Assembly: GCA_951813565.1 (NCBI GenBank)
Contig: OX638351.1
Coordinates: 863,389-927,388 of the forward strand
Direction: 5' to 3'
From: an uncultured Poribacteria bacterium
Lineage (GTDB): Bacteria; Poribacteria; WGA-4E; WGA-3G
DNA: 64,000 bases
The notes under the pieces are model-generated. The model had not been told where the DNA came from. It worked only from the letters and a program-made list of their open reading frames with translations, and searched no databases. The stretch's first letter is position 1, and every line of letters begins with the position of its first letter. The position numbers and the translations under genes were made by a program. Of this stretch, positions 2,666 through 64,000 are shown in pieces.

Positions 2666-2998
2666 ATGAACAGCTACAAAGTTAAGTCTCCGTTCAATCT
2701 AACAATTAAGACACTTGACCTGAAAGGACGCGTGCAAGGGACTGATACTATCGAATTCTTGCGCGTTGAACTCCAGTATGAAGATGGTAATGGACCGCTT
2801 TTCCTCGCGCGGGTTCGGTACGCCTGCAACGGTGTTGAACAAGAAGACGGTTTCCCTATTGATTTAGATAAAGGGGCATTCATTTCTACAGTCTCTATCC
2901 AAAATGAAGGATTAGAAGAAAAACTCCAGGAAATTGGTCCCGAAATTGCCAAGATTGTGCGTAAAGATTTAGCAAAACACTGTCGAGCACATGCCTAA
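2666..2998 (+). CDS. Hypothetical 110-aa protein, candidate antitoxin/immunity partner
   Basis: ATG at 2666 after AAGGG, 36 nt downstream of the ART stop, same strand. No recognisable family. Confidence 0.55.
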   Translation: MNSYKVKSPFNLTIKTLDLKGRVQGTDTIEFLRVELQYEDGNGPLFLARVRYACNGVEQEDGFPIDLDKGAFISTVSIQNEGLEEKLQEIGPEIAKIVRKDLAKHCRAHA

Positions 2999-3116
2999 AA
3001 ACAGCAAACCAGAATGAGTTGTTTATCTCATTTTCTTTTGGATTATCCCTCATATTTACCAACAAGACAATGCCTTCTCAATTAATAACCTAAATTTTCA
3101 ACAAGGAGAGATTTAT

Positions 3117-3440
3117 ATGGCATTTTTTGAATTACGTCAATATCGAACCCAACCCGGACAACGCGACAACTGGGTCAAATACATGGAGGAAACGATTATC
3201 CCGTTCCAGATTTCCAAGGGAATGGTCGTTATCGGTAGTTTTATCGGTGAAGAAGAGGATGACCTCTATGTCTGGATCCGACGGTTTGAAAACGAGGAAC
3301 AGCGTGAAAAACTCTACGCAGCGGTTTATGAAGACGATAGATGGGTAAACGAAATCTCGGCACGCGTCGGTGAACTCATTGATAGATCAAAAATCGTTGT
3401 TACACGGATGGAACCGACCTCACGCTCACCGCATCAATAA
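3117..3440 (+). CDS. NIPSNAP family protein
   Basis: FFELRQYRTQPG...YVWIRRFENEE pattern, 107 aa, AGGAG RBS. Confidence 0.8.
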   Translation: MAFFELRQYRTQPGQRDNWVKYMEETIIPFQISKGMVVIGSFIGEEEDDLYVWIRRFENEEQREKLYAAVYEDDRWVNEISARVGELIDRSKIVVTRMEPTSRSPHQ

Positions 3441-3459: not shown

Positions 3460-4209
3460 ATGAACGCTGAAGAAAAATATCTGTTTGACCTGTGGGGATA
3501 TGTGAATATAGAAGGTGTTTTAGAAGCGGAAGAACTTGCAGAATTGAACGCTCTGATTGACGCGCAAGACTACCCTGATCCTGCGGATGAGAACATCCAT
3601 TCACAACGATTCGGTGGTTTCTTGAGTTGGGAAAATGAGGCTTTTCGGAAACTTCTCAACCATCCACGCATCATGCCATGCTTAGCAGAGGTTGTCGGCC
3701 CAAAATTTCGGCTTGATCATGTTTACGGTATCTTGATGAAAGAAGGCAACCCTGGTGGAACACTCCACGGTGGTGGCACGCCTTACGATCCATCACAATA
3801 TTACGTCTTCCGAAATGATCGGATGTATAACGGTTTGACTGTTGTTTCGTGGGCTTTGACAGATATGCTGCCAGGGCATGGTGGTTTTTGCTGTATTCCT
3901 GGTAGCCACAAAAGCAACTATCCGTGTCCACCGCAGTTCCGACCCGTGAAAGACAACAAAACTTGTATGGCGCCTGTGCATCAGAAGGCAGGCGATGCTG
4001 TCATCTTCACGGAAGCGTTAACTCACGGTACCCTTCCGTGGACTGCTACGCACCAACGCCGCTCAATTCTGTTCAAGTATTCCCCAGGACATGCTTCATG
4101 GGGACAAGGTAGATATGACGATGCACTCCGCGAGCTGATGACAGATGAAGACCAGAAGTTGATGCTTGAACCGCCTTATGTTGCACACCGTAAACCTGTA
4201 GTAAATTAG
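3460..4209 (+). CDS. PhyH-family Fe(II)/2OG oxygenase with H-x-G motif
   Basis: EKYLFDLWGY start, LHGG, GGFCCIPGSHK, GDAVIFTEALTHG, RRSILFKY. Start moved to ATG 3460. Confidence 0.85.
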   Translation: MNAEEKYLFDLWGYVNIEGVLEAEELAELNALIDAQDYPDPADENIHSQRFGGFLSWENEAFRKLLNHPRIMPCLAEVVGPKFRLDHVYGILMKEGNPGGTLHGGGTPYDPSQYYVFRNDRMYNGLTVVSWALTDMLPGHGGFCCIPGSHKSNYPCPPQFRPVKDNKTCMAPVHQKAGDAVIFTEALTHGTLPWTATHQRRSILFKYSPGHASWGQGRYDDALRELMTDEDQKLMLEPPYVAHRKPVVN

Positions 4210-4561: not shown

Positions 4562-5707
4562 TTACCAATCCGCAACACTACCGTCGGTATCATAATAATA
4601 CTCGCCGCCAAGTTCTTCAGGATAGGTATCAAGCATCTGTTCCGCTTCCTGCTCATTGATTTCGAATCCGAGCCCTGGTTTTGTTGGCAACTCAATGTGG
4701 CCATCTGTAACTTGCCAATCTTCGGTGAATAAACCTGCACCCAAACCGTCATCAATTTGCTCTTGGATAAGGAAATTTGGAACGACAGCATCAACATGAA
4801 GGGAGGCAGAAAAAGCAACCGGTCCAATCGCACAATGCGGTGCAATATGCATATAGTAAACCTCCGCCATATTGGCGATTTTCTTCAGTTCGGTGATACC
4901 ACCAGCGTGGGAGGTATCGGGTTGTAAGTAAGCAACCGCTTGTTTCTCAAAAACTTCGCGAAATCCCCACCGTGTCAGCAAACGTTCACCGGTGGCAATC
5001 GGAAACGGAACATGGTCAGATACTAATTTCAGAGCATCTACATTCTCTTGTGGAACAGGTTCCTCAACGAACATTGGACGCATGCCTTTAAGTTCGTGGC
5101 AAATCTCAATAGCAAGGGCAGGTGTCATCTTACCATGAAAATCAAAGGCAAGTTCAACATCGGGACCGACCCATTCGCGCATCAGATAGGCACGTTCAAC
5201 AAAAGCATCAATCACTGCAGGAGGTTCATGTCCGCGCCATTTACCACCAGGCCCGCTTTTAAACGCTGTGTAGCCTCCTTTTTCTTGTAAAAATTCAAGC
5301 CGTTCTTTTGCAGAGGCTTTTCCATCGTCAGTTAAACTGCCGATGCCCCAGTGTGCATAAACGCGGATACGGTCACGCACAGCGCCACCTAAGAGTTGAT
5401 ACGTTGGCACATTGTAAAATTTGCCCGCAATGTCCCACAACGCCTGATCGATTCCGGACAGGGCAGACATCAAGATATTACCGCCTCGAAAAAAAGCAGA
5501 TCGGTAGATATGCTGCCAATGGTGTTCAATACGTAAAGGGTCTTTACCAATAAAATAGTCGGCAAGTTCTTCAACTGCCGCCCATGTGCTTTTCGGTTTA
5601 CCTTCAAGTGTCGTTTCACCCCATCCAACGATGCCGGTGTCTGTTGTAATTTTTACAAGCCGCATCCGACGACGTGGATAGAATTGTTCAATAGTCGCAA
5701 TCTTCAT
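4562..5707 (-). CDS. dgoD: Galactonate dehydratase-like enzyme (mandelate racemase/enolase superfamily)
   Basis: GWGETTLEGK, SGIDQALWDIAGK, FDFHG, EEP, ATGER, APH motifs. Confidence 0.8.
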   Translation of the reverse strand: MKIATIEQFYPRRRMRLVKITTDTGIVGWGETTLEGKPKSTWAAVEELADYFIGKDPLRIEHHWQHIYRSAFFRGGNILMSALSGIDQALWDIAGKFYNVPTYQLLGGAVRDRIRVYAHWGIGSLTDDGKASAKERLEFLQEKGGYTAFKSGPGGKWRGHEPPAVIDAFVERAYLMREWVGPDVELAFDFHGKMTPALAIEICHELKGMRPMFVEEPVPQENVDALKLVSDHVPFPIATGERLLTRWGFREVFEKQAVAYLQPDTSHAGGITELKKIANMAEVYYMHIAPHCAIGPVAFSASLHVDAVVPNFLIQEQIDDGLGAGLFTEDWQVTDGHIELPTKPGLGFEINEQEAEQMLDTYPEELGGEYYYDTDGSVADW

Positions 5708-5864
5708 TAGAATTTCCTTTACGAGTTATGATCGGTTATAGTGTAGCATAGAAATAAACATAATTTTAAAGTTATAGCGTTTGTAGTCGCGCAATTCATT
5801 GCGCCTCTTACATTTACATAGTTAAAAAATGGTATATCGCTAATTGTAAAATCAATTGTAGTAT

Positions 5865-6945
5865 GTCATAGGTACCCACTACCTAAAGGTAGGGGCTTGT
5901 GCTTCCTTGCGACTGCGGTTTTCTCAGAGAGTTGACCGTCTTAGTGTCGCTCCACTTTAGGCAGCCAAGCCTGCCCGTTTGATATTGATAGCAGCGTTGG
6001 TGTCTCGGTCGTGGTGTGAACCACATTCGGAACATGTCCACTGCCTATCAGAAAGAGAGAGTTCTTTGTTATGGTATCCACAATCACTACAAGGTTTTGT
6101 TGTTGCTATCCATTGAGAGATTCGCACAAGTTTTTTGCCGTGCTTCGCACACTTCTGTTCCAATATCTGAAGAAACTGGTAGAAAGAATGGTCAGAAACT
6201 TTACGCCCCCATAATCGTTTCATACCGTCAAGGTTCAGCGTTTCCAAAATGAGTGTGTCAAACTCTACACAAAGTTTTGAGGCAAGTTTCCATTGCCAAT
6301 CTTCTCTTTGTCGGGCAACTTTTCTGTGTTGTCTTGCCAAAGCACGACACGCACGATACCAATTGCTTGAACCTTTAACCTTACGACTCAGTGTTTTGTT
6401 TAGAGATTGCAGCGTCTTGAGTGAATGTCATAGAATTGTATTTGTGGCGGGGTTTGATTTTCGGTCTACCCACTTTACGCGTTGTTTTGCCCGCTTTTCG
6501 GTCTTCGATATTCTCAAAGAAAGCGTCTTGAGATTTACCATAACGTAGGACAACGTCTTGCACAACTTGACTCGGCAAGTCCGCCCAGTGTGGTTTAGTT
6601 GTTTTTTTGAGTTTCGTAACATGTGCCTTCAGACGATACGCAGACAAATTTTTGCCGAACATGCGATAATACCTACGTGCCAAACGCATGATATGCACAT
6701 GGATTTGCCACATATCATCAAGCATATTACCAAGTTTGATTGTGTTAGATTGGTGTTGAAGTTTGAACTTGTGAGATTTTCTCATTGTCCACTTTGACCT
6801 TCAATATAGTCTTTTATCACTTCAAGAGTTACACTATAGTATGATATATTATACCACATTGTGATTAGATTGAAAAGTATATTTTAAATCAAAACTTTCG
6901 CCGTCTACATCCCCTACCTAAAGGCAGAGGGTTTGACGGGGAGTG
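5865..6945 (-). mobile_element. IS200/IS605 (tnpB-only) element, copy A, internally deleted
   Basis: Ends match the 24749-26112 element: left end follows TTAG, right end ends in TATGAC. About 284 bp shorter. Confidence 0.9.
5957..6785 (-). pseudogene. tnpB: tnpB pseudogene (frameshifting deletion removes RuvC-I)
   Basis: N-terminal ORF 6381-6785 and C-terminal ORF 5957-6340 are near-identical to 24908-26020. The GFDYG segment is missing. Confidence 0.9.
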
Positions 6946-6998
6946 CTAAAAAATGCTCTCTTTTATCTACAAACCGACAACCAATTACAGGAGGAATT

Positions 6999-12886: not shown

Positions 12887-13133
12887 GCTAATCTCTCCTT
12901 TTTATGTGCCAACTCAAGGACTACTTATACCATAGAAACTTTCATCATTTATTATACTCTTTTTAGGGTATGAGTGTCAATCTTAAATGTGCTTTGTGCC
13001 TACTTTCCAAAGTGGTATAATGATTGTTATGAAAACTACAAAAAGAGGATTTACGCGCTTTGCTTTTTTTGATTTCGTAATTGCAATTTATGGAGGCATC
13101 TTTTTATTTCTCTTGGATGCAGCCCTTAATTTT

Positions 13134-13516
13134 GTCATAGGTACCCACTACCTAAAGGTAGGGGCTTGTGCTTCCTTGCGACTGCGGTTTTCTCAGAGAG
13201 TTGACCGTCTTATTGTCGCTCCACTTTAGGCAGCCAAGCCTGCCCGTTTGATATTGATAGCAGCGTTGGTGTCTCTGTCGTGGTGTGACCCACATTCGGG
13301 ACATGTCCACTGCCTATCAGAAAGAGAGAGTTCTTTGTTATGGTATCCACAATCACTACAAGGTTTTGTTGTTGCTATCCATTGCGAGATTCGCACAAGT
13401 TTTTTGCCGTGCTTCGCACACTTCTGTTCCAATATCTGAAGAAACTGGTAGAAAGAATGGTCAGAAACTTTACGCCCCCATAATCGTTTCATACCGTCAA
13501 GGTTCAGGGTTTCAAA
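13134..13516 (-). mobile_element. IS200/IS605 copy B: right end plus 3' tnpB fragment, truncated by an IS
   Basis: Right end (...TATGAC) and the C-terminal zinc finger/RuvC-III are near-identical to the other copies. Homology stops at 13516, at the IS inverted repeat. Confidence 0.9.
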
Positions 13517-14973
13517 GGGTGTGTAAAGTTTTTGGCATGAATATCACGCTGCTTTTGTGTTTGTATACCAATAATTATTCCATGCTTCATTTTTCAACAA
13601 ACACCTCCACTTCAGCACAGCATTGATACCCGGTTTCTCCCATCTCATAGCAGCTTGTTTGCATCTTTGTCCGACAACATGTTTACACGCACTTTCAATC
13701 ACACCACTGCCAATCTGATACCCTTTTTCTCTAAACGCTTTATACTGCATTCGCTTCGCGTGTTTTTCGAAATACCGCGCTTCTCTTTCTAAAATATCCG
13801 ATACTTCCGGGGTCTGTGTGTCTAAGCCACGAATGCGTGCGGCTACTTCTGTAATGTTGCCATCATAAAGGATAGGTTCTGTCGTTTTTACCCAGTCTTG
13901 TATCGCCTCTGTTTCAGTCTCTCCGAACGCAACTTTAGCAACATCATATAGATGAGACTTCGCATGCATATAATCCACAATCTCTACAGCATTGGGGAAG
14001 TATTCATCCGCTAAGTTCCATATCCACGCTGCACCATCACCAAGAAACACAATCTCTTGCGTATCTATCGCTTCTTGGTAGATGCCACTATTGGTTGCTA
14101 ACGCATATAACTCCTTACCAAAATGTGCTGCATCATTACGCGTTGCGACATAACGGATACTTGTCTCTCTCGCACTTGACACCGCATCAGAACCACATTG
14201 TGGATAATCTCTGTAAACACTACCAACTTTTGTCTCTTTCCACCCATCAGGGGAGTTGGTATGACACCCATCACAACTCACATGCCATCGCTCATTTTCT
14301 GCGAGTTTTTGAGGTGCCACTTGTTCACAGACGCTCAAATCTTCTGACCATTCACTCACTTTGTGTTGGAGCGTCGTGTGGCTGACTTCTATACCTTGAT
14401 GCGACAACTCCGATGCCGCTTCTCTATAGTCAAGAAGGGCAGACAGACGACACATCGCTTCAGCAACACGACGCGTGTATTGACCCAATAACTTCTGTTT
14501 GACCTCCCACGGCGCGTGACGATGTCCTTGTTCACAACAATACACCCAACGATTTACGCTTGTTTTTCCACAAAGTGTTGTGAAATAACGCGCACGCATA
14601 CGCAATGGACGACAAAGTTCTTGACACGCTGGACATTCAACTGGTTCACGCTCTTTCTTATTTGACTTTTTAGAAACACACATTTCTAAAAACTTTTGTT
14701 TAAAAGAACAAAATGCTTCGGAAACACGGACTTCAACATCACCTAAAGATAAACCCTCGTCAGAATTGATGTCTACATAAAGATCGTTGATCTCTTTTAC
14801 AAACTCGTTAAAATCTGCTTTGTAATCGTTGCCTTCACAAGGACTTAATGATATACTTGGCATTGGTATCCTCTCCTATAATAGTGATAATTATTAGGGT
14901 AGGATACCATTTATATACATTTTCTACAAGAACTCCATTCATTTCAATTTCATGCCAAAAACTTTACACACCC
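13517..14973 (-). mobile_element. ISKra4/ISLre2-like (Mutator-type DDE) insertion sequence
   Basis: 25-bp perfect TIRs GGGTGTGTAAAGTTTTTGGCATGAA at 13517-41 and 14949-73. No TSD visible. Confidence 0.85.
13544..14863 (-). CDS. DDE transposase (ISKra4/UPF0236-like), apparently intact
   Basis: SCDG, FLGDGAAWIW, VDYMHA and GSGVIESACK motifs. N-terminal CxxC. Confidence 0.85.
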   Translation of the reverse strand: MPSISLSPCEGNDYKADFNEFVKEINDLYVDINSDEGLSLGDVEVRVSEAFCSFKQKFLEMCVSKKSNKKEREPVECPACQELCRPLRMRARYFTTLCGKTSVNRWVYCCEQGHRHAPWEVKQKLLGQYTRRVAEAMCRLSALLDYREAASELSHQGIEVSHTTLQHKVSEWSEDLSVCEQVAPQKLAENERWHVSCDGCHTNSPDGWKETKVGSVYRDYPQCGSDAVSSARETSIRYVATRNDAAHFGKELYALATNSGIYQEAIDTQEIVFLGDGAAWIWNLADEYFPNAVEIVDYMHAKSHLYDVAKVAFGETETEAIQDWVKTTEPILYDGNITEVAARIRGLDTQTPEVSDILEREARYFEKHAKRMQYKAFREKGYQIGSGVIESACKHVVGQRCKQAAMRWEKPGINAVLKWRCLLKNEAWNNYWYTNTKAA

Positions 14974-22454: not shown

Positions 22455-23160
22455 AACGTGAGTTTGATAATAATATTATAACGTGAGTTTGATAATTAGA
22501 CCTAAATGTAGATGTCAGTTGGGTAGAGCGAAGCGAAACCTATAGGCGTCAATTTAGTGCCTGATTTTCTTGTGGGAGGGCTTTCTAAGCCCGATATTGT
22601 GAGGCTCAAACCGTTATATCGGGGTTGAAAACCCGACAAATGCCAAAAAGCGCATTTGGCGTTGATTTGGCAGCATGCCATACGCGCATGCTGCGTTGAT
22701 TCACTCCCACAATAGGATATATCCTAAAATTGACACTTATGGGTAGAGCTTGCGAAACCCGACCTGTTGGGACTGAAATACTATTATCAAAACCTGCTTG
22801 ATGTGTTCCTTCGATTTCCGTGTGAAACCCGCCCAGTTTGCCTTGAAACCTTGATATTGTCGGGTTTCGCAAGCTCTACCCGACGGGCGAACTTTAGATT
22901 TTATGAGAGACCAAAAACTACGGACAATTAAAACGTTATAATGTCTAATGTCTATTATTCCTAATCGGTTTGTTTTACTAACGTGAGTTCGGTATAATAC
23001 CAAACGGGACTTACGCAACTTGATCAAAAAACAGACAAATTTCGTCTGAAAAATCGTTATTTCAGCACTTTTAACCCTAAATCCCTTATCAAGCGGACTT
23101 TAAGAAGAACTGCGCAAGTCCTGTTTGGTTACGGCACGCGGTGCGTACCTACTACCTTTA
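22455..23160. repeat. Patchwork of nested REP/MITE-like palindromic repeats
   Basis: TAACGTGAGTTTGATAA twice, a CCTATAGGCGTCAA...TTGACACTTATGGG shell, TGTGGGAG REPs and AATCAAC hairpins. All recur elsewhere in the window. Confidence 0.8.
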
Positions 23161-24366: not shown

Positions 24367-24748
24367 TCTTACTTTGGGAATTGGAGAAAACTCGTGACAT
24401 TACGCGCAGGGATTGTCGGTTGTGGCGGGATTAGCCGTAGCCACGCGGCAGCTTATGATGGTTTAGAAGATATTTCACTCGTCGCAATGTGTGACATTAA
24501 TAGCGATGCCCTTAATAACCGCGCCGATGAATATGGTGTTCCAAACCGATATACCAATTATGATGAGATGTTTGCGAATGAAACGCTTAATATTGTGAGT
24601 GTTTGCACACATGCGCCTTTACATGCCCCGATTACAATTGCGGCGGCACAAGCGGGTATCAATGTTTTATGTGAAAAACCACTCTCGGTTGATTTAGAGA
24701 CTGCTGACCAAATGCTTGCGGCGTGTAACGAAGCCAGTGTCCACTTAG

Positions 24749-26112
24749 CACTCCCCATCAAACCCCCTGCCTTTAGGTAGGGGATGTAGACGGCGAAAGT
24801 TTTGATTTAAAATATACTTTCAATCTAATCACAATGTGGTATAATATATCATACTATAGTATAACTCTTGAAGTGATAAAAGACTATATTGAAGGTCAAA
24901 GTGGACAATGAGAAAATCTCACAAGTTCAAACTTCAAAACCAATCTAACACAATCAAACTCGGCAATATGCTTGATGATATGTGGGAAATCCATGTGCAT
25001 ATCATGCGTTTGGCACGTAGGTATTATCGCATGTTCGGCAAAAATTTGTCTGCGTATCGTCTGAAGGCACATGTTGCGAAACTTAAAAAGACAACTAAAC
25101 CGCATTGGGCAGCCTTGCCGAGCCAAGTTGTGCAAGACGTTGTGCTGCGTTATGGTAAATCTCAAGACGCTTTCTTTGAGAATATCGAAGACCGAAAAGC
25201 GGGCAAAACAACGCGTAAAGTGGGTAGACCGAAAATCAAACCGAGACACAAATACAACTCCATGACCTTCACACAAGCGGGCTACAAACTTGAAGATAAC
25301 CGTATCAAAATCAACTGTATAGATACATGGTTTTCCTTTCACAAACACCGTGAAATCAAAGGGCTAATCAAGACGATCACGATCAAACGTGACAGGTGCG
25401 GTGACTATTGGATATGCTTTTCGTGCGAGAATGTTGACGATTCCGAACCCAAACCCAAGACAGGTAAGAGCGCAGGGTTTGATTATGGAAATAAAACGTT
25501 CCTCACAAGCGACGAAGGCAACAAGGGACAATCTCCGCAGTTTTTCAAACAATCACTGAAAAAGTTGCGAGCCTTGAGCAAAGCGCTGAGCCGTAAAGTC
25601 AAAGGTTCTAACAACTATTATCGTGCGTGCCGTGCTTTAGCAAGGCAACACAGAAAAGTTGCCCGACAAAGAGAAGATTGGCAATGGAAACTTGCCTCAA
25701 AACTTTGTGTAGAGTTTGACACACTCATTTTGGAAACGCTGAACCTTGACGGTATGAAACGATTATGGGGACGTAAAGTTTCTGACCATTCTTTCTACCA
25801 GTTTCTTCAGATATTGGAACAGAAGTGTGCCAAACACGGTAAAAAACTTGTGCAAATCTCTCAATGGATAGCAACAACAAAACCTTGTAGTGATTGTGGA
25901 TACCATAACAAAGAACTCTCTCTTTCTGATAGGCAGTGGACATGTTCCGAATGTGGTTCACACCACGACAGAGACATCAATGCTGCTATCAATATCAAAC
26001 AGGCAGGCTTGGCTGCCTAAAGTGGAGCGACACTAAGACGGTCAACTCTCTGAGAAAACCGCAGTCGCAAGGAAGCACAAACCCCTACCTTTAGGTAGTG
26101 GGTACCTATGAC
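24749..26112 (+). mobile_element. Complete IS200/IS605 tnpB-only element (1364 bp), target TTAG, no TSD
   Basis: TTAG|CACTCCCC left end with hairpin, right-end hairpin plus ...TATGAC|. The same junctions occur in the other copies. Confidence 0.92.
24908..26020 (+). CDS. tnpB: RNA-guided endonuclease TnpB, RuvC triad intact
   Basis: GFDYG (D), LILETL (E), CSDC/CSEC zinc finger, DRDINAAINI (D). 370 aa. Confidence 0.92.
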   Translation: MRKSHKFKLQNQSNTIKLGNMLDDMWEIHVHIMRLARRYYRMFGKNLSAYRLKAHVAKLKKTTKPHWAALPSQVVQDVVLRYGKSQDAFFENIEDRKAGKTTRKVGRPKIKPRHKYNSMTFTQAGYKLEDNRIKINCIDTWFSFHKHREIKGLIKTITIKRDRCGDYWICFSCENVDDSEPKPKTGKSAGFDYGNKTFLTSDEGNKGQSPQFFKQSLKKLRALSKALSRKVKGSNNYYRACRALARQHRKVARQREDWQWKLASKLCVEFDTLILETLNLDGMKRLWGRKVSDHSFYQFLQILEQKCAKHGKKLVQISQWIATTKPCSDCGYHNKELSLSDRQWTCSECGSHHDRDINAAINIKQAGLAA

Positions 26113-50944: not shown

Positions 50945-52150
50945 GGGCGGGCACCAAATCAAGAAATCAACGGTATGAACGACATTTAGTCATTCACCGG
51001 GTATGAATGCCTTTGGCAGAATACGCTGAATCAACGTCAAGCGCGCGTTTGGCACTTATCGGGTATCTGCATGATTTGACGAGTGTTAATTTAAGGCATG
51101 CAATCCCCGTTCACATCGTAGGGCCAAATCAACGCCAAATGCGCTTTTTGGCATTTGGCGGGGTCTTCTGTGCCCCGCCATGTGTCAGGAACATGTCAAG
51201 CAACGGGCGGGCACCAAATCAAGAAATCAACGGTATGAACCATGGCGAATGCCATACGGGGAATGCCAAAGGGCATTCATACCGTTGATTTGGCGCATTC
51301 GTCTTTAGTCATTCACCGGGTATGAATGCCTTTTGGCATTCCCCGGAGACCCGCCCCTACAATAAGGGTGAGGTTTGTAGGTTGTATTTAATAGCGTCCA
51401 ACCTGAAATAAATCCTTAAATTGATACCTATGGGTAGAACGTAGCGAAACCCAACGAAAAATCCTTAAATAACGTGAGTTTGATAATTAACTGGACAGGC
51501 AAAAATTGAACAGAGAACGGGCATATTTGCTGAAAAAATCGTTATTTTGGTGTTTTTAACCCCCTAAATCCCCTTATCAGAGGGACTTTAAGAGGAAATG
51601 TGGAAGTTCTAACTATTTATCAAACTCACGTTTAAATAGATGTCTATGTTGCGGTTAGAAAACCACAACTATTGGGATGTTCGCATATTTCAGAATTTAC
51701 TATAATAACCTAAGTTGCTACGGACAAGATTTCAAGCTTGTAGACATTGCTTTTTACTGAAAAACAAGGATTTCCAGCTAATTCTTATGCTTTCTTTTTT
51801 AAATCGGGGTTAGAAACCCCTCCTACAAGAGCATTCGCGATATAGGTAGCAACTTGGGTTATAATAACCTAAGTTGCTACCTATGTAGCACAAACTTTAT
51901 GAAGATTAACTTATTCTTTTGGTAATTTCTGTCCGTACGAGGCAGATGTGCCCGCTGCTGGCGAGGTTTCCTAACCTCGCTAAATTACCGATTTATTTTC
52001 TTAAACTTCATTTATAATGAACTTTAGAATTAACAGGACATTTTGAGTTGTGAATCAACGCCAAATGCGCGTTTGGCATTTGGCGGGAGGGAACTCCGAT
52101 TCCCGACTATCAGTGAATTTCATCGCGATTCGGAGATCGCTCCTACAGAA
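50945..52150. repeat. Cluster of nested REP/MITE-like repeats
   Basis: AATCAAC hairpins, a TAACGTGAGTTTGATAA shell (51470-51633), an ATAACCTAAGTTGCTAC shell and GTAG-type REPs. Confidence 0.8.
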
Positions 52151-54278: not shown

Positions 54279-54940
54279 CCCATAGGTGTCAACTTAAGAA
54301 CATAATTACCAGATTGTCTCTTGTAGGAGGGCTTTCTAAGCCCGATTTTGTGAGACTCAAACTGTTAAATCCAAATCAACGCAGCATGCGCCAAATCAAG
54401 AAATCAACGGTATGAATCATGGCGAATCATGTAGAATACCAAAAGCGTATTCTACCAAGCGCATTCGTCTTTAGTCATTCACCGGGTATGAATGCCTGTT
54501 GGCATTCCCCGTATGGCATGCTGCCAAATCAACGCTGAATGCGCGTGTAGGCATTCATCCAAATCAACGCAGCATGCGCCAAATCAAGAAATCAACGGTA
54601 TGAATCATGGCGAATCATGTAGAATACCAAAAGCGTATTCTACCAAGCGCATTCGTCTTTAGTCATTCACCGGGTCCGAATGCCTGTTGGCATTCCCCGT
54701 ATGGCATGCTGCCAAATCAACGCTGAATGCGCGTGTAGACATTCATCCAAATCAACGCAGCATGCGCGTATGGCATGCTGCCAAATCAACGCTGAATGCG
54801 CGTGTAGGCATTCATCCAAATCAACGCTGAATGCGCGTGTAGGCATTCATCCAAATCAACGCTGAATGCGCGTGTAGGCATTCATCGGGGTTGAAAACCC
54901 CTCCCACAAGAAGAAATTTCCTTAAGTTGACACTTATGGG
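54279..54940. mobile_element. Composite palindromic element inserted in the dnaK terminator
   Basis: 20-bp imperfect TIR CCCATAGGTGTCAACTTAAG / CTTAAGTTGACACTTATGGG. GAGAAGTAGGCAGCCC repeated at 54265-80 and 54942-57. Confidence 0.75.
54371..54885 (+). repeat. Tandem array of CCAAATCAAC-hairpin modules
   Basis: 188-bp unit twice (54371, 54559), a 34-bp unit (54747), and a 35-bp unit three times (54781, 54816, 54851). Confidence 0.9.
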
Positions 54941-54972: not shown

Positions 54973-55013
54973 TATCCAAGAGGTGTTACTGATGTTTATA
55001 GCGAGTTTACATT

Positions 55014-55316
55014 AGACATTATAACGTTTTAATTGTGAGTTATTGGTCTGCGGAAAAATCTTATGTTTGTCCGTTGGGCAGATGAGGCATCGCGCGCAAC
55101 TTTCTGAATCGCGGATTTATCGGATGACGCAGATGGCACGGATTATTGGATACTGGTAACAACAAGTCGTTTTCATAATGTCCGGTCAATAACAGAAGGC
55201 GTGCATGCGTCCGTTGAATGTGCGGATACCAAGTTCTTAGAATCCGCGTCATCCGATAAATCTGCGATAATCCGCGATTCTGACAACACAACGCAGATTA
55301 AATCATTATAATGTCT
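55014..55316. mobile_element. 303-bp MITE, copy 1 (3-bp TSD ATT)
   Basis: TIR AGACATTATAA. ATT at 55011-13 and 55317-19. Near-identical inverted copy at 61795-62096. Confidence 0.85.
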
Positions 55317-55375
55317 ATTAGAATCTGTAGTACCAACGTTTCAACTTGAAAAGATTGACACCGTAGGTCTCTTTT

Positions 55376-55421
55376 GTCATAGGTACCCACTACCTAAAGG
55401 TAGGGGGTTTGACGGGGAGTG
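55376..55421 (-). mobile_element. 46-bp minimal relic of the TTAG tnpB element (left tip, one hairpin, right tip)
   Basis: Minus strand reads TTAG|CACTCCCCGTCAAACCCCCTACCTTTAGGTAGTGGGTACCTATGAC|. Confidence 0.85.
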
Positions 55422-56220
55422 CTAAAATAGAGCCAGTGACCCGAGTGAGTATCTCACGACGGGATTAGCGAAGAAGGCACCATTAGCCACCGCTATCGGC
55501 ACCGAGAAAGCAAGGTCAGAAATGATTGTGGCCGATGTGCTTGTTGAACTCCTGGAACACCTGGATCGTCGCATCAGTCTGTTTTCTGGCATTGACTTTA
55601 ATGTTGATGTTGAAAACGGTCTGACTGGTGTATGCGATTTTTTGGTGAGTCTGTCACCGAACCAATTTTATTTAGAGGCACCTGTCATTATCCTTGTTGA
55701 GGCAAAAAATACTGATGTGAAATTGGGGCTTGGACAATGTGTTGCAGAGATGCTCGCCGCCCAACGTTTTAACGCAGAAAGAGGAATGATATCCCTTGCG
55801 TTTATGGGGCTTCCACGACAGGAATAGATTGGCTGTTCCTTAAATTACAGGAAAATAACCTACACATTGATATGTCAGCCTATACGATTGAGCGGTGTGA
55901 CAGGATCCTTGGCATCCTCTCAAGTATGGTGTCCCAGGAGGTGTGATAGTGTATTTGACTACGGCTCCAAAATTACGGTTACTTGTTTTTCTGTGGACGA
56001 GTCAACGGAAGCAATGGCATAGTAAAATCTTCAGGAGTTAACTATAAAAAACTATCTTGTCCATTCATTTTGTTACCTGCTACTATTTGCCATTGTCTTC
56101 ACTGGATGCAGCGAGCGCGATAGAAACTTTATAGTTAAATCCCAAATATGTGAATCACCCTTTGTAGGTGTGGTTTGAAACCGCACCGGACATAATCTGG
56201 AATTACCTAATTTATTTGAG

Positions 56221-60396: not shown

Positions 60397-61777
60397 CTGA
60401 TATTTATCAAAATTATTAAGAATCCGCTAAATATCAATACAACGAAGGTATTAGGACATGAAAATGTGTTTATTATGAAGAGTTGACTTGATTTTTTATA
60501 TATGAGATGTCATCATATATTATAAACAATAACACTATTTGATTATTTAGGAGGACATCTCATGCATCATCAGATTATCAAATCTGTGAAGTTTTTTCAA
60601 CATCTTTTTTGTTCTCGTTTTCGCCGCATTAGATTACAAATCGTTGACACTGGACTTTTGTTATCGGTTTGTCATTTATTTGGTCTGGACAATCCGAACC
60701 AAGTTGCAGATGCGTTGACACTTCCCAAAGCGGGTCTTTATCGGGATCTTCACTCACTGAGCCAGTATCATTGGAAATGCTTGAATGTGCAGCTCGGATG
60801 TGCGATGGAACTTTGAGTTGATCAAAGATACCGAAGCTAAGAGTGCTTCAACACAATCTTGTCGGCGTCCTACTATCAGTGTAGATGATAGCAACGTAGA
60901 TCGATATGGAAAAACAATAGCATACTGCTCAAACTGGTGGTCTAAAAAACATAATAACACCACTTGGGGCAGAACATATTAGGCATCACGATCAAGATTG
61001 GCGATATTGTTATTCCACTCAATACACGCCTTGTTTCAAAATAAGGGCGTGGCAGGACAAAGAAACCGGTTTTTTTGTCCTGCCATGATGAAAGAAGTGT
61101 TAGATTTCTTTGATGCCCAAAGCATTGATATCAGAAAATATCCGATCACTTTCGATTCGTGGTATGGTAGCAAGAAACTGATCGGAATCTTATCAGATTT
61201 AGGGTTTATGTCCATATTGGTTCATGGTAAAAACAACTATGTGATGACAATAAAGAACAAAAAATCTAAACTTTCGGTTCATAAGAGATCCGGACAACTG
61301 CAGCCAAAACAATGGGGGTGCGATAAACCTGTCTGTCGTGTCCAAGCCACAAGTCCAACATTTGGTGCGTGTATTGTGCTGTTCTTTTTAGATATGGGAA
61401 AGGGACGCACACGCTTAGTTTTTGGTAAACCACTACGCACTTGTGAAGCACTCAAGATTTGGTCTCAACACCACGGGATTGAACATTTTTGGCAGAATAC
61501 GCGTGTGGTATTCTGCATGAGTTGAAATCCCGTTTGCACTTGTCCGCTATGAGTTTAGAAAGCACACAAGGGGCGTATGCGGGGCTCAGTATAAAAGTAA
61601 TGAGCTACCTGGTATTGTTGCAGGTAAGCATCTTAGAGCGTCGCACATTCCATCAAGGACAACTTGAACTCACTGGACAAAGACAAATGTTACTTGAAAT
61701 CATGGCGCATTTTCATGAACTAAACCCAAAAGAACCTTTATTATTACTGATATTCGACAACTTTTGAGAAATATCAG
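60397..61777 (+). mobile_element. Decayed IS4/IS701-like element with a frameshifted DDE transposase
   Basis: Imperfect TIR CTGATATTT(A/C)TCAAAA. Fragments SVDDS, TFDSWYGS and HHGIEHFW lie in different frames. Confidence 0.7.
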
Positions 61778-61794
61778 TAAAGTAAGTCTATAAT

Positions 61795-62096
61795 AGACAT
61801 TATAATGATTTAATCTGCGTTGTGTTGTCAGAATCGCGGATTATCGCAGATTATCGGATTACGCGGATTTTAAGAACTTTGTATCCGCACATTCAACGGA
61901 CGCATGCACGCCTTCTGTTATTGACCGGACATTATGAAAACGACTTGTTGTTACCAGTATCCAATAATCCGTGCCATCTGCGTCATCCGATAAATCCGCG
62001 ATTCAGAAAGTTGCGCGCGATGCCTCATCTGCCCAACGGACAAACATAAGATTTTTCCGCAGACCAATAACTCACAATTAAAACGTTATAATGTCT
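61795..62096. mobile_element. 302-bp MITE, copy 2 (inverted; TSD AAT)
   Basis: Reverse complement of 55014-55316 with a few differences. AAT at 61792-94 and 62097-99. Confidence 0.85.
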
Positions 62097-62140
62097 AATA
62101 ATATGAACACTATTGACAGTGCCTACTGTAGATAGTATTA

Positions 62141-62367
62141 TAACGTGAGTTTGATAATTAGACCTAAATGTAGATGTCCGTTGGGTAGAGCGAAGCGAAA
62201 CCCAACAATTCAACCGTCTTGGAAGTAATTTAAAGTTGGGTTTCACTCACTTTTCTGTTATTTCGGCATCAAATGGAAAAAAATCTCTCTTTTATGTCCG
62301 ATTTTTTGTTTATTCCGTTCTACCCAACGGACAGTGGTTATTGAATTTTATTATCAAACTCACGTTA
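62141..62367. repeat. MITE-like element with TAACGTGAGTTTGATAA inverted repeats
   Basis: Perfect 17-bp IR including terminal TA. The same shell occurs at 51470-51633 with a different core. Confidence 0.75.
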
Positions 62368-62388
62368 TTATATTTTAGATTTGATTAT

Positions 62389-62941
62389 CGTTTTTCGGTG
62401 TCAAGACCCCGTTGCTTTAGCGCGGGGATGTAGACACCGCTAACATGTGCAGGGCATCACGAAATGTCCAACGAAAGATTAGGATGTCCTACTACATCGT
62501 CAACCATGTCCGTTGGTGGAGAGCGTCTATATCATGCCAGTCGAATGCGAACTGGAACACGTGAGCGGGTTGATATGCAGCACATATCTGCAATGTGAAC
62601 TACCAAAGTCGCTATTTAGCGAACTCTCAAAAGGAGCGTGTAGAGCATTGTCCAAAAGACCCCAAGAGAAGTCCGCTATCTCTTGTTGTGTCGGGGTGCC
62701 TGTTAGAAAGGGCAAGAATGAACTGTTTTAAGTGAAACAGTGCCACTTCACAAAAAAGAATCTTGCCATCTAAAGCAGGTAAAAATCTGCAATAGATGAA
62801 TGGGCGGGGCATCGTCCATTGAAGGAGAGGATGGAAGACTTGCAAAGGCATTGCTGGCGCAAGCAGTCCTTGATGATAGCAGAATTTACCCAGTGCAGAG
62901 GACCTAAGAATCCCCCTGCTTTAGTTGGGGGAGTATGTTAA
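62389..62941 (+). mobile_element. ORF-less IS200/IS605-type element with a highly structured interior (candidate ncRNA); left boundary approximate
   Basis: Left end GTCAAGACCCC...TTTAG...GGGGATGTAGAC resembles the tnpB left end. Right end AAGAATCCCCC..TTTAG..GGGGGAGTATGTTAA. Confidence 0.7.
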
Positions 62942-63036
62942 AAAATCAGTGTATTGTGTATGGGCGGTGTTAAATACCGCCCTTTCCTATCTCTATCCTC
63001 CTTTACCTCCAAAAATTTCTCTTTTTTGCAGAATTA

Positions 63037-63116: not shown

Positions 63117-64000
63117 ATGAAAAATGACGATGTTGCACTTATCAGACGAATTCTTGCTGGTAATGAAACCGCTTTCGCTGAACTTGTGAAAAAGTATCAA
63201 AAACAGGTTCACGTTCTGGCGTGGCGAAAAATCGGAGATTTCCATATCGCTGAGGACATTACCCAGGATGTCTTTCTGAAAGTGTATCAGCAACTTCATG
63301 CCCTGAAAAATCCGAAACAGTTTTCCGGATGGCTCTATGTGATAACGACACGTCTCTGTGCAACGTGCCTACGCAAAAATCGGATTCAGACGCAACCGTT
63401 GGAGGACACAGAGATAACAATGATACAGAGTGATGCCTATTCACAACATGTCGTAGAGGAGCGGGCAAACACTGCAGTTGAAACACAACGTGAAGTGGTC
63501 AAGAGACTACTCGCTAAGTTGAAAGAGAGCGAACGCACGGTGATGGCGCTCCACTATCTCGGTGAGATGACAGTTGAAGAGATCAGCAAGTTTTTAGGGG
63601 TTTCTGCAGGAACGATTAAGAGTCGGCTACAACGTGCGCGAAACCGTTTACAAAAGGAGGAAACGATGATTAGAGAAGCACTCGACCATTTCCAAATTTC
63701 ACCGAACCTGACCGATAACATTATGCGAGAAGTTGCTCGACTTAAACCTATCGCACCTTCTGGTGGTAAGCCACTGGTGCCGTGGGTGATAGGTGCCGCA
63801 AGCGCAGTTTTGATTGTATTAATGCTTGGCATAGGCAGTCAATACTTAACACATTTTCAGAAACCCTATAGTTTAGATGCGCAAGCTGAAACGGCGGTTG
63901 AACTCGTTGATGCGCCTATTGTGCTAAATCTTGAGGCGACGCCAGATGTTCGTCGTCAGTTTGGGAATATAAATGCACTTGGTCCAAGCGATAACAATGG
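63117..64000 (+). CDS. ECF sigma factor with a C-terminal TM extension (3'-partial, absent from the ORF track)
   Basis: MKNDDVALIRRILAGNETAFAELV...AEDITQDVF...FSGWLY...TIKSRLQRAR, then WVIGAASAVLIVLMLGIG. Confidence 0.88.
   Translation, partial: MKNDDVALIRRILAGNETAFAELVKKYQKQVHVLAWRKIGDFHIAEDITQDVFLKVYQQLHALKNPKQFSGWLYVITTRLCATCLRKNRIQTQPLEDTEITMIQSDAYSQHVVEERANTAVETQREVVKRLLAKLKESERTVMALHYLGEMTVEEISKFLGVSAGTIKSRLQRARNRLQKEETMIREALDHFQISPNLTDNIMREVARLKPIAPSGGKPLVPWVIGAASAVLIVLMLGIGSQYLTHFQKPYSLDAQAETAVELVDAPIVLNLEATPDVRRQFGNINALGPSDNN

Follow-up and report, generated by a model that had tools for sequence, protein, structure and literature searches.

The window, a 64,000-nt stretch of a Candidatus Poribacteria genome (sponge symbionts), carries at positions 62390–62941 a discrete, ORF-less, non-autonomous IS200/IS605 element of 552 nt that is similar to palindrome-associated transposable elements (PATEs). 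Its ends resemble those of IS608, it is inserted 3' of the motif TTAT(C), and many copies occur at unrelated sites. Judged by sequence homology, the last ~145 nt (62797–62941) are the counterpart of the right end of related tnpB-bearing elements, where the omega (guide) RNA is encoded, and the ~350 nt upstream are, on comparative evidence, a conserved + strand RNA structure that is absent from those relatives. The best overall reading, which we consider probable, is that of a PATE-like non-autonomous element with an orphan omega RNA, expressed by read-through, and with a structured 5' domain.

The element, its ends and its copies

The limits of the element are the points at which the alignment of 15 copies and their flanks stops. 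The original prediction had placed them at 62389–62982, and they are now corrected to 62390–62941. The hairpin at 62962–82 is part of the flank and outside the element: it is missing beside other copies, resembles a local intrinsic terminator and was the sole terminator-like site found in the terminator scan. The IS605-like hairpins that had been noted at both ends are present (LE, 62407–62427, followed by GGGGATGTAGAC; RE, 62912–62931, followed by AGTATGTTAA). Both are subterminal, and the element has neither terminal inverted repeats nor a protein gene. The terminal features are as follows.

62385–62389 (+): target/TAM-like motif TTAT(C), directly before the left end; its C (62389) is assignable either to the target or to the element
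62390–62444 (+): left end (LE), with AAGA (62403–06) at the 5' foot of hairpin CCCCG/CGGGG (62407–62427, loop with GCTTTAG), then GATGTAGAC
62912–62941 (+): right-end (RE) hairpin and tail in the 15-copy alignment, CCCCC..GGGGG with loop UUUA (62920–23) and tail AGTATGTTAA

The LE hairpin shows compensated changes among the copies (G-C to A-U), and an RE hairpin and tail of the same kind are present on tnpB-bearing elements. A repeat search with the LE motif found the same end type on a resident TnpB element (24745–26112), and the ends are thus of the IS200/IS605 kind. Directly 5' of the copies stands TTAT followed by C (14/15) or T (1/15), while on the right side there is no duplication and the flanks are unrelated from copy to copy, as expected of a mobile, oriented element that inserts without target duplication. 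The 3' terminus is GGGAGTATGTCAA (TCAA) in 14/15 copies. In IS608, cleavage tetranucleotides at the RE and target reportedly pair with guide tetranucleotides at the feet of the hairpins. In the present family, GAAT stands 5' of the RE hairpin and TCAA is terminal in those 14 copies, and AA(G/A)A, 5' of the LE hairpin, could pair with the target TTAT. The window copy ends in TTAA (62938–62941) in place of TCAA, the predicted RE cleavage motif, and so may be immobile or no longer excisable.

The 15 full-length copies come from Poribacteria MAGs and metagenomes and are 74–85% identical to the window copy. Homologs over the whole interior were found by blastn and nhmmer at loci L046 (two copies), L049, L109, L066, L072, L107, L033, L021 and L105; L076 and L027 are two further copies truncated by block edges. 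Scanning metagenomes for the invariant 20-mer AATGGGCGGGGCATCGTCCA yielded four more, L112, L113, L114 and L117; three of the eight matches (L110, L111 and L115) were dropped as unrelated chance or coding matches. At least 10 copies with 94–99% mutual identity lie at different sites of a single MAG (CAXXTN01). The LE motif CTTTAGNNNGGGGATGTAGAC occurs at more than 108 loci in the genome collection, nearly all of them in Candidatus Poribacteria MAGs among the matches listed. CAXXTN01, the MAG with at least 10 of the ORF-less copies, also holds L018, a tnpB-bearing element with which they share the TTATC target; over its first ~50–55 nt the LE of L018 is about 96% identical to theirs. The plasmid collection gave no blastn match to the element. 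In viral contigs the core and hairpin-A patterns had no match, and the LE pattern found one unrelated PATE only, an ORF-less element of ~260 nt that bears this LE motif and a hairpin resembling an RE and is located upstream of terminase genes (L001, an IMG/VR contig, 2870–3140). In the L114 copy (5497–6007) the omega region is shortened and the RE hairpin is a different one (CCATGCC..GGCTTGG), still with the tail GGGAGTATGTCAA. A literature search found no paper connecting Poribacteria with TnpB.

The interior was said to be free of ORFs and of tnpA and tnpB, and this holds. The longest ORF is at most 74 codons and none is conserved; single- and multi-base indels between copies disrupt every frame. 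Searches (tblastn) with three TnpB proteins (from the window, L018 and L116; 41–42% identical to one another) reached at best an E-value of about 1 and gave no sign of a decayed tnpB, and translation of the interior yields no degraded transposase. The concatenated six-frame translation had no relative among 5.8 billion proteins.

PATEs are gene-less IS200/IS605 derivatives, some of which encode omega RNAs (Meers et al. 2023, PMC10055086; Gomes-Filho et al. 2015, PMC4615843). Like them, the element has gene-less LE and RE hairpins, is multi-copy, inserts 3' of a short motif and has a right end that matches the omega region of tnpB elements in the same genomes. It differs in being long for a PATE (552 nt), in having no promoter of its own, and in that ~350 nt of it belong neither to the ends nor to the omega scaffold but make up a conserved domain supported by covariation. 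Another comparison is with REP/REPIN elements, which are moved by RAYT (Y1 HUH) transposases, REPINs being inverted REP pairs of ~100 nt. These are likewise gene-less, hairpin-bearing intergenic repeats of operons, and movement by a Y1 enzyme in trans is proposed here as well, but REPINs are short, consist of inverted REP pairs and carry no omega-RNA module.

The window contains further mobile sequences. The resident TnpB element (24745–26112) is 1.37 kb long, belongs to a second IS605-type family, encodes an intact TnpB of 370 aa (PF01385 and PF07282) and lies within an ORF that begins at 24394 and extends into its LE. A broken copy of this second family, with tnpB in two tblastn pieces, lies at 5865–6949 (−) and a 3' fragment at 13133–13541 (−). 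In this family the RE tail (GGGTACCTATGAC) and the target motif are not those of the 62390–62941 element. A solo element of 50 nt (55376–55425), a minimal PATE, consists of the 5' part of the LE, one hairpin and the RE tail of the same TnpB family. Two inverted copies of a ~310-nt sequence (61791–62099 and 55011–55320; 99–100% identical) lie 6.5 kb apart on either side of a region containing fragmented transposase-like ORFs (60562–61767). Tandem arrays (188 nt, two units; 35-nt hairpin-forming units) occupy 54369–54906 and have motifs in common with 50951–51345 and 22621–22704.

The putative guide RNA module at the right end

The suggestion that the interior is an orphan omega-RNA-like guide is supported for the 3' ~145 nt only, by homology to L018, L116 and others and by a stem/pseudoknot layout resembling that of ISDra2. 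The module comprises the RE hairpin and tail listed above and the following features.

62800–62911 (+): omega-homologous scaffold, part 1; hairpin A at 62800–19 (loop GGGGCAU), outer helix 62827–31/62867–71, inner hairpin 62839–43/62859–63, UUGAU at 62870–74 and GAAT at 62908–11
62942–62961 (+): putative guide segment in the flank, outside the mobile element and different in sequence at each copy, placed here because TnpB omega guides are the 16–20 nt just outside the RE

The family profile (nhmmer) matched the tnpB-linked loci L018 (E 5.6e-7) and L116 (E 8.7e-4). A covariance model built on window 62719–62941 (CM R1) scored 66 bits with L018, 40 bits with L116, and between 32 and 40 bits with the tnpB-linked group of L116, L083, L090, L108, L030, L084, L004 and L016. 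The alignment is confident from hairpin A (62800) to the end and poor over the 80 model positions upstream, where the tnpB-linked loci show low posterior probabilities and non-canonical pairs. In L116, hairpin AATGGGCGGGGCATCGTCCA directly follows the stop codon of a 371-aa tnpB, and the shared sequence continues to a right end of the form ...GAAGAAT-hairpin-GAGTATGTCAA. The L018, L116 and window proteins are TnpB (Pfam PF01385 and PF07282), and that of L018 (386 aa) matches ISDra2 TnpB structures at E 4e-41. Within the 64-kb window no cognate (hairpin-A type) TnpB was found, and CM R1 matches only the element itself. Five pairs in the omega part are compensated within the family, and hairpin A is compensated between families (GGTAG/CTACC vs GGTTG/CAACC).

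The ISDra2 omega RNA has a 116-nt scaffold of four stems and a pseudoknot (positions −5 to −3 with the stem-1 loop), with a UUUA loop in stem 4, and the part 5' of stem 1 is dispensable (PMC10097598). By analogy, the module may be mapped onto this scaffold as follows.

ISDra2 stem 1 (+): would correspond to hairpin A, 62800–19
ISDra2 stem 2 (+): would correspond to 62827–31/62867–71
ISDra2 stem 3 (+): would correspond to 62839–43/62859–63
ISDra2 stem 4 (+): would correspond to the RE hairpin, loop UUUA at 62920–23
ISDra2 pseudoknot (+): would correspond to tail GU(C/U) with G(G/A)C of the hairpin-A loop, an analogy without covariation

The module resembles TnpB omega RNAs (the ISDra2-type reRNA, HgcC (RF00062) and the archaeal sotRNAs) in its position at the RE, in the putative guide in the flank, in the proposed counterparts of stem 1, nested stems 2/3 and stem 4 with its UUUA loop, in the potential for a pseudoknot between tail and stem-1 loop, and in sequence and CM homology to tnpB-linked RNAs. 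It differs in lacking an overlapping tnpB ORF and in a scaffold of ~142 nt vs 116 nt. RNAs of the HgcC family lie at the 3' ends of IS1341-type tnpB genes (PMC4615843). The match to it was weak (20.6 bits, E 0.008, in the homolog L046b only, covering the RE hairpin) and below the gathering threshold of 50 bits; Rfam scans of the window copy gave no HgcC match. The guide of TnpB omega RNAs is the 16–20 nt directly beyond the RE (PMC10097598; PMC10055086), and PATEs 'often encode omega RNAs' that are used in trans (PMC10055086). The orphan omega-RNA module appears complete.

The upstream structured domain

The ~350 nt between the LE and the omega module (62445–62796) can be divided into a 5' part, a junction and a core whose last helix reaches 62798.

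62445–62620 (+): 5' part of the family-specific structured domain; predicted hairpins 62452–69, 62471–74/62497–500 with inner 62485–87/62494–96, 62537–55 and 62572–88
62590–62651 (+): predicted three-way junction; closing helix 62590–96/62645–51, inner helix 62601–03/62640–42, hairpins 62609–22 and 62624–36 (invariant ACTCTCAAAAGGAGCG)
62659–62798 (+): most conserved core; CCC(C)/GGGG around CAAGAGA/TCTCTTG at 62660–62696, GCCT/GGGC at 62698–62713, ACTGTTT/AAACAGT at 62722–41, candidate pseudoknot 62730–34/62744–48, and CATCTA/TAGATG enclosing GCAGGT/ATCTGC at 62767–98

Across seven lineages, identity averages 68% in the LE, 77% in 62445–62620, 88% in 62621–62796 and 83% in the omega module, so that the second half of the domain is more conserved than the module itself. 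The 5' part holds an invariant block (AGCGGGTTGAT, 62564–74) and compensated pairs in ACGA/TCGT (two), CCAGT/ACTGG (one) and GATATG/CATATC (three). The three-way junction was predicted on several sub-alignments (RNAalifold), with one compensated pair in its closing helix and two in TCGCT/AGCGA. In the core (62659–62798), which has invariant runs of 16–19 nt, one pair is compensated and several A-U pairs are replaced by G-U. The core had no reliable counterpart in the tnpB-linked loci in the CM alignment. More widely, 62445–62796 lacks a counterpart in the tnpB-bearing relatives, in which a TTGACA-17-TATACT promoter and tnpB come after the LE, and also in the sister ORF-less families, which have other leaders.

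Dense base pairing had been proposed from the single sequence, and folding does beat the shuffled controls on both strands (z −3.9 on +, −4.4 on −). The whole-element RNAalifold fold was distrusted as its long-range pairings were unstable, and only local helices were therefore kept. The resulting conservative model of the whole element comprises 108 pairs, and 96% of the cells in it are paired. Both sides are changed in sixteen of these pairs, against 4.6 ± 1.8 in shuffled alignments (0/500 reach 16) and at most 3 in slid-partner controls. The central domain accounts for ~15 helices and 81 pairs, 10 of them changed on both sides (3.5 ± 1.5 shuffled; slid controls at most 2). Covariation is thus present, double-sided changes exceeding both kinds of control, and it comes from few independent lineages (mainly L112/L105, L117/L021 and window/L113). 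The G-U bias also favours the + strand, as had been suggested, with 190 G-U vs 19 A-C cells, a count that is biased because the helices were picked on that strand. The same qualification applies to the ratios of 131:17 in the central domain and 57:1 in the omega part; since the excess is seen in both, they probably lie on the same (+) RNA strand.

Most of the helices that were originally proposed recur in the comparison. Supported by the 15 copies are CCAGT/ACTGG and GATATG/CATATC, with the compensated pairs given above (one and three); CAAGAGA/TCTCTTG is consistent and invariant across copies; and ACTGTTT/AAACAGT, CATCTA/TAGATG and ATGGGCG/CGTCCAT are consistent with or supported by the alignment. 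The candidate pseudoknot AAGTG/CACTT is consistent with the copies and shows A-U to G-U changes only. Three helices are not retained: TAGAC/GTCTA has two uncompensated mismatches in about half of the copies, the 5' arm of GGCAAGA/TCTTGCC varies without compensation, and in place of AGGGCATC/GATGTCCT a local hairpin (GGGCA/TGTCC, 62452–69) fits.

Two possible contacts of the domain were noted. The invariant block AGCGGGUUGAU(AUGC) at 62564–62578 is complementary to the RE tail GUAUGUUAA at 62933–62941 over 9 bp, two of them G-U and none covarying, and GGGUUGAU at 62567–74 could compete with UUGAU (62870–74) of the omega module for that tail. An antisense role was rejected, the complementarity of the central domain to tnpB elements being at most 10 nt (E ≥ 0.4).

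Other ORF-less elements were seen in the fetched loci. A sister family of ~430 nt (L096 2380–2810 (−), L036 5084–5518 (−), L054 ~554–990 (−) and L103 ~1610–2049) shares the LE and RE and has a TTGACT-17-TATACT promoter of its own and, before the omega module, another conserved, helix-rich leader of ~200 nt. An element of ~490 nt in L056 (~3540–4030 (−)) has the other end type and a TTGACA-17-TATAAT promoter, and is inserted right after a tRNA-like 3' end within a tRNA gene cluster. Elements of ~290 nt (L014 5806–6096; similar in L024, L028, L055, L031 and L047) and ~420 nt (L073 993–1411) are plain deletion derivatives of the L030-type tnpB element and retain about 165 nt of its omega region.

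Expression, alternative readings and possible role

A promoter scan of two copies (the window copy and L046b) found no sigma-70-like + strand promoter inside either. Most copies lie in sense orientation in short spacers between co-oriented ORFs; the upstream ORF ends 10–30 nt before the LE in six copies and the downstream ORF starts 2–80 nt after the RE in five. Given the lack of an own promoter and the sense position between co-directional genes, read-through transcription is the likely source of the RNA. The genes downstream of 10 copies are functionally unrelated, and this rules out a gene-specific leader.

In the surroundings of the window copy, an ORF resembling an ECF-type sigma factor (by eye) begins 176 nt beyond the right end of the element and is cut off by the edge of the window (63118–64000); no link to it is drawn, as other copies precede unrelated genes. 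Directly upstream is a MITE-like element (62132–62375) with 19-bp terminal inverted repeats (ATAACGTGAGTTTGATAAT), a second copy of which begins at 22470 (22470–22540, 97% over 71 nt). A strong promoter-like sequence, TTGACA-17-TATTAT (62113–62141, +), could drive read-through into the 62390–62941 element.

In the mechanism that we propose, a Y1 TnpA encoded elsewhere would move the element as single-stranded DNA; the tnpB-bearing elements that were measured span about 1.37–1.40 kb from LE to RE and have no room for tnpA. Transcription would probably occur by read-through from co-directional neighbours. The 3' module of the transcript would fold into stem 1 (hairpin A), nested stems 2/3 and stem 4 (the RE hairpin with its UUUA loop), the tail GUC forming a pseudoknot with the hairpin-A loop, and the RNA would run on into 16–20 nt of flank as the guide. 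A TnpB supplied in trans by a cognate element (of the L018 type, with the same LE, target motif and RE) would bind the module and cut emptied, TTAT-flanked donor sites, so that recombination would restore the element.

For the ~350-nt domain, the most likely role, though one that we hold weakly, is that of a family-specific 5' leader that may stabilise the guide RNA, help to process it from operon transcripts or aid it in competition for TnpB. Such a leader leaves unexplained why 62621–62796 is more conserved (88%) than the omega module (83%), and the dispensability of all RNA 5' of stem 1 in ISDra2 also counts against it. A second reading, tentative and on balance doubtful, is that 62445–62796 represents an undescribed class of structured RNA with its own function, the only cargo of the IS605 shell, released when the omega RNA is cut at stem 1. 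It could be a processing ribozyme, an RNA that modulates TnpB or TnpA, or a switch, the last suggested by an invariant block (GGGUUGAUAUGC) that could compete with the UUGAU of the omega module for the RE tail. Besides that conservation and the invariant runs of 16–19 nt, an own function would be in keeping with the ~15 helices, the covariation above controls and the + strand G-U bias, with the absence of the domain from tnpB-bearing relatives and of any matching Rfam family, and with ISDra2 TnpB, which needs no RNA 5' of stem 1; it is also compatible with the omega reading of the 3' end. However, the domain is seen in one element family only, its conservation partly reflects recent transposition, and it shows no association with the function of neighbouring genes. 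Moreover, other Poribacteria PATE families carry different, unrelated leaders of ~70–350 nt in the same position, for which reason a generic leader role fits better.

Low sequence diversity (effective number 2.3), together with a single copy in the window whose terminal TCAA has mutated to TTAA, might instead indicate a dead relic, that is, a deletion derivative with a functionless interior in which conservation and apparent helices reflect shared descent only. We regard this as improbable, since at least 10 copies of 94–99% identity at different sites of one MAG indicate recent activity, conservation is uneven (LE 68% vs core 88%), and the compensated pairs exceed the shuffled and slid controls.

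The original prediction also considered an IStron-type ribozyme derivative. IStrons are group I introns fused to IS605 or IS607 elements, and an LE, ~350 nt of structured RNA and an omega/RE region would amount to an IStron minus its genes (Zedaveinyte et al., 10.1101/2023.11.20.567912). On this reading host transcripts would be freed of the element by its interior, acting as a self-splicing or self-cleaving ribozyme of the group I or another type. The order of parts, the sense insertion in transcribed regions (inside operons) and a U before the LE boundary are shared features, but the element has no genes and no group I signature. The whole window had no Rfam match at gathering threshold, and permissive scans of three diverged copies (window, L112 and L046b) gave no group I, hammerhead, twister, pistol, hatchet or HDV-like match at E ≤ 10 and no + strand HEARO. 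Group I introns have a 3'-terminal G, while the copies end in ...GT(C/T)AA, with a terminal A. No internal guide complementary to the TTAT-ending flank was found in the LE by eye, no P3-P7 type pseudoknot was recovered, and tnpB-bearing relatives lack the domain; an IStron origin is accordingly very improbable. The weakest reading, that the LE-proximal domain is an omega RNA of the IscB type (HEARO-like) that reads in from the left flank, would suit a large, multi-helical domain on the LE side, where IscB omega RNAs of IS200/IS605 elements reportedly lie, but is scarcely credible given that HEARO (RF02033) was matched only on the − strand of one of the three copies scanned (12.9 bits, E 3.3) and not on the + strand, that no fetched locus contains iscB, and that the ends are common to tnpB elements.

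An orphan omega module is known in general terms for PATEs, and the value of the present case lies in the 350-nt domain and in the occurrence of several PATE families in Poribacteria whose long leaders differ. IS605 derivatives that have lost their genes but retain an omega RNA show that the guide RNA, the nuclease and the transposase can reside on different elements, and this family adds a large conserved structured RNA domain at the place where its relatives carry tnpB. Even if the domain is idle, the family would still offer, in a sponge symbiont that has not been cultivated, a clean natural case of an orphan omega RNA with expression from host operons. If instead the domain is a cargo RNA, the Poribacteria PATEs, with the leaders of the sister families, would be a reservoir of transposon-borne structured RNAs. 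Should it affect guide-RNA biogenesis, competition for TnpB or transcript fate, it would represent a new RNA-level layer of control in TnpB systems, and it could also serve the engineering of compact guide RNAs.
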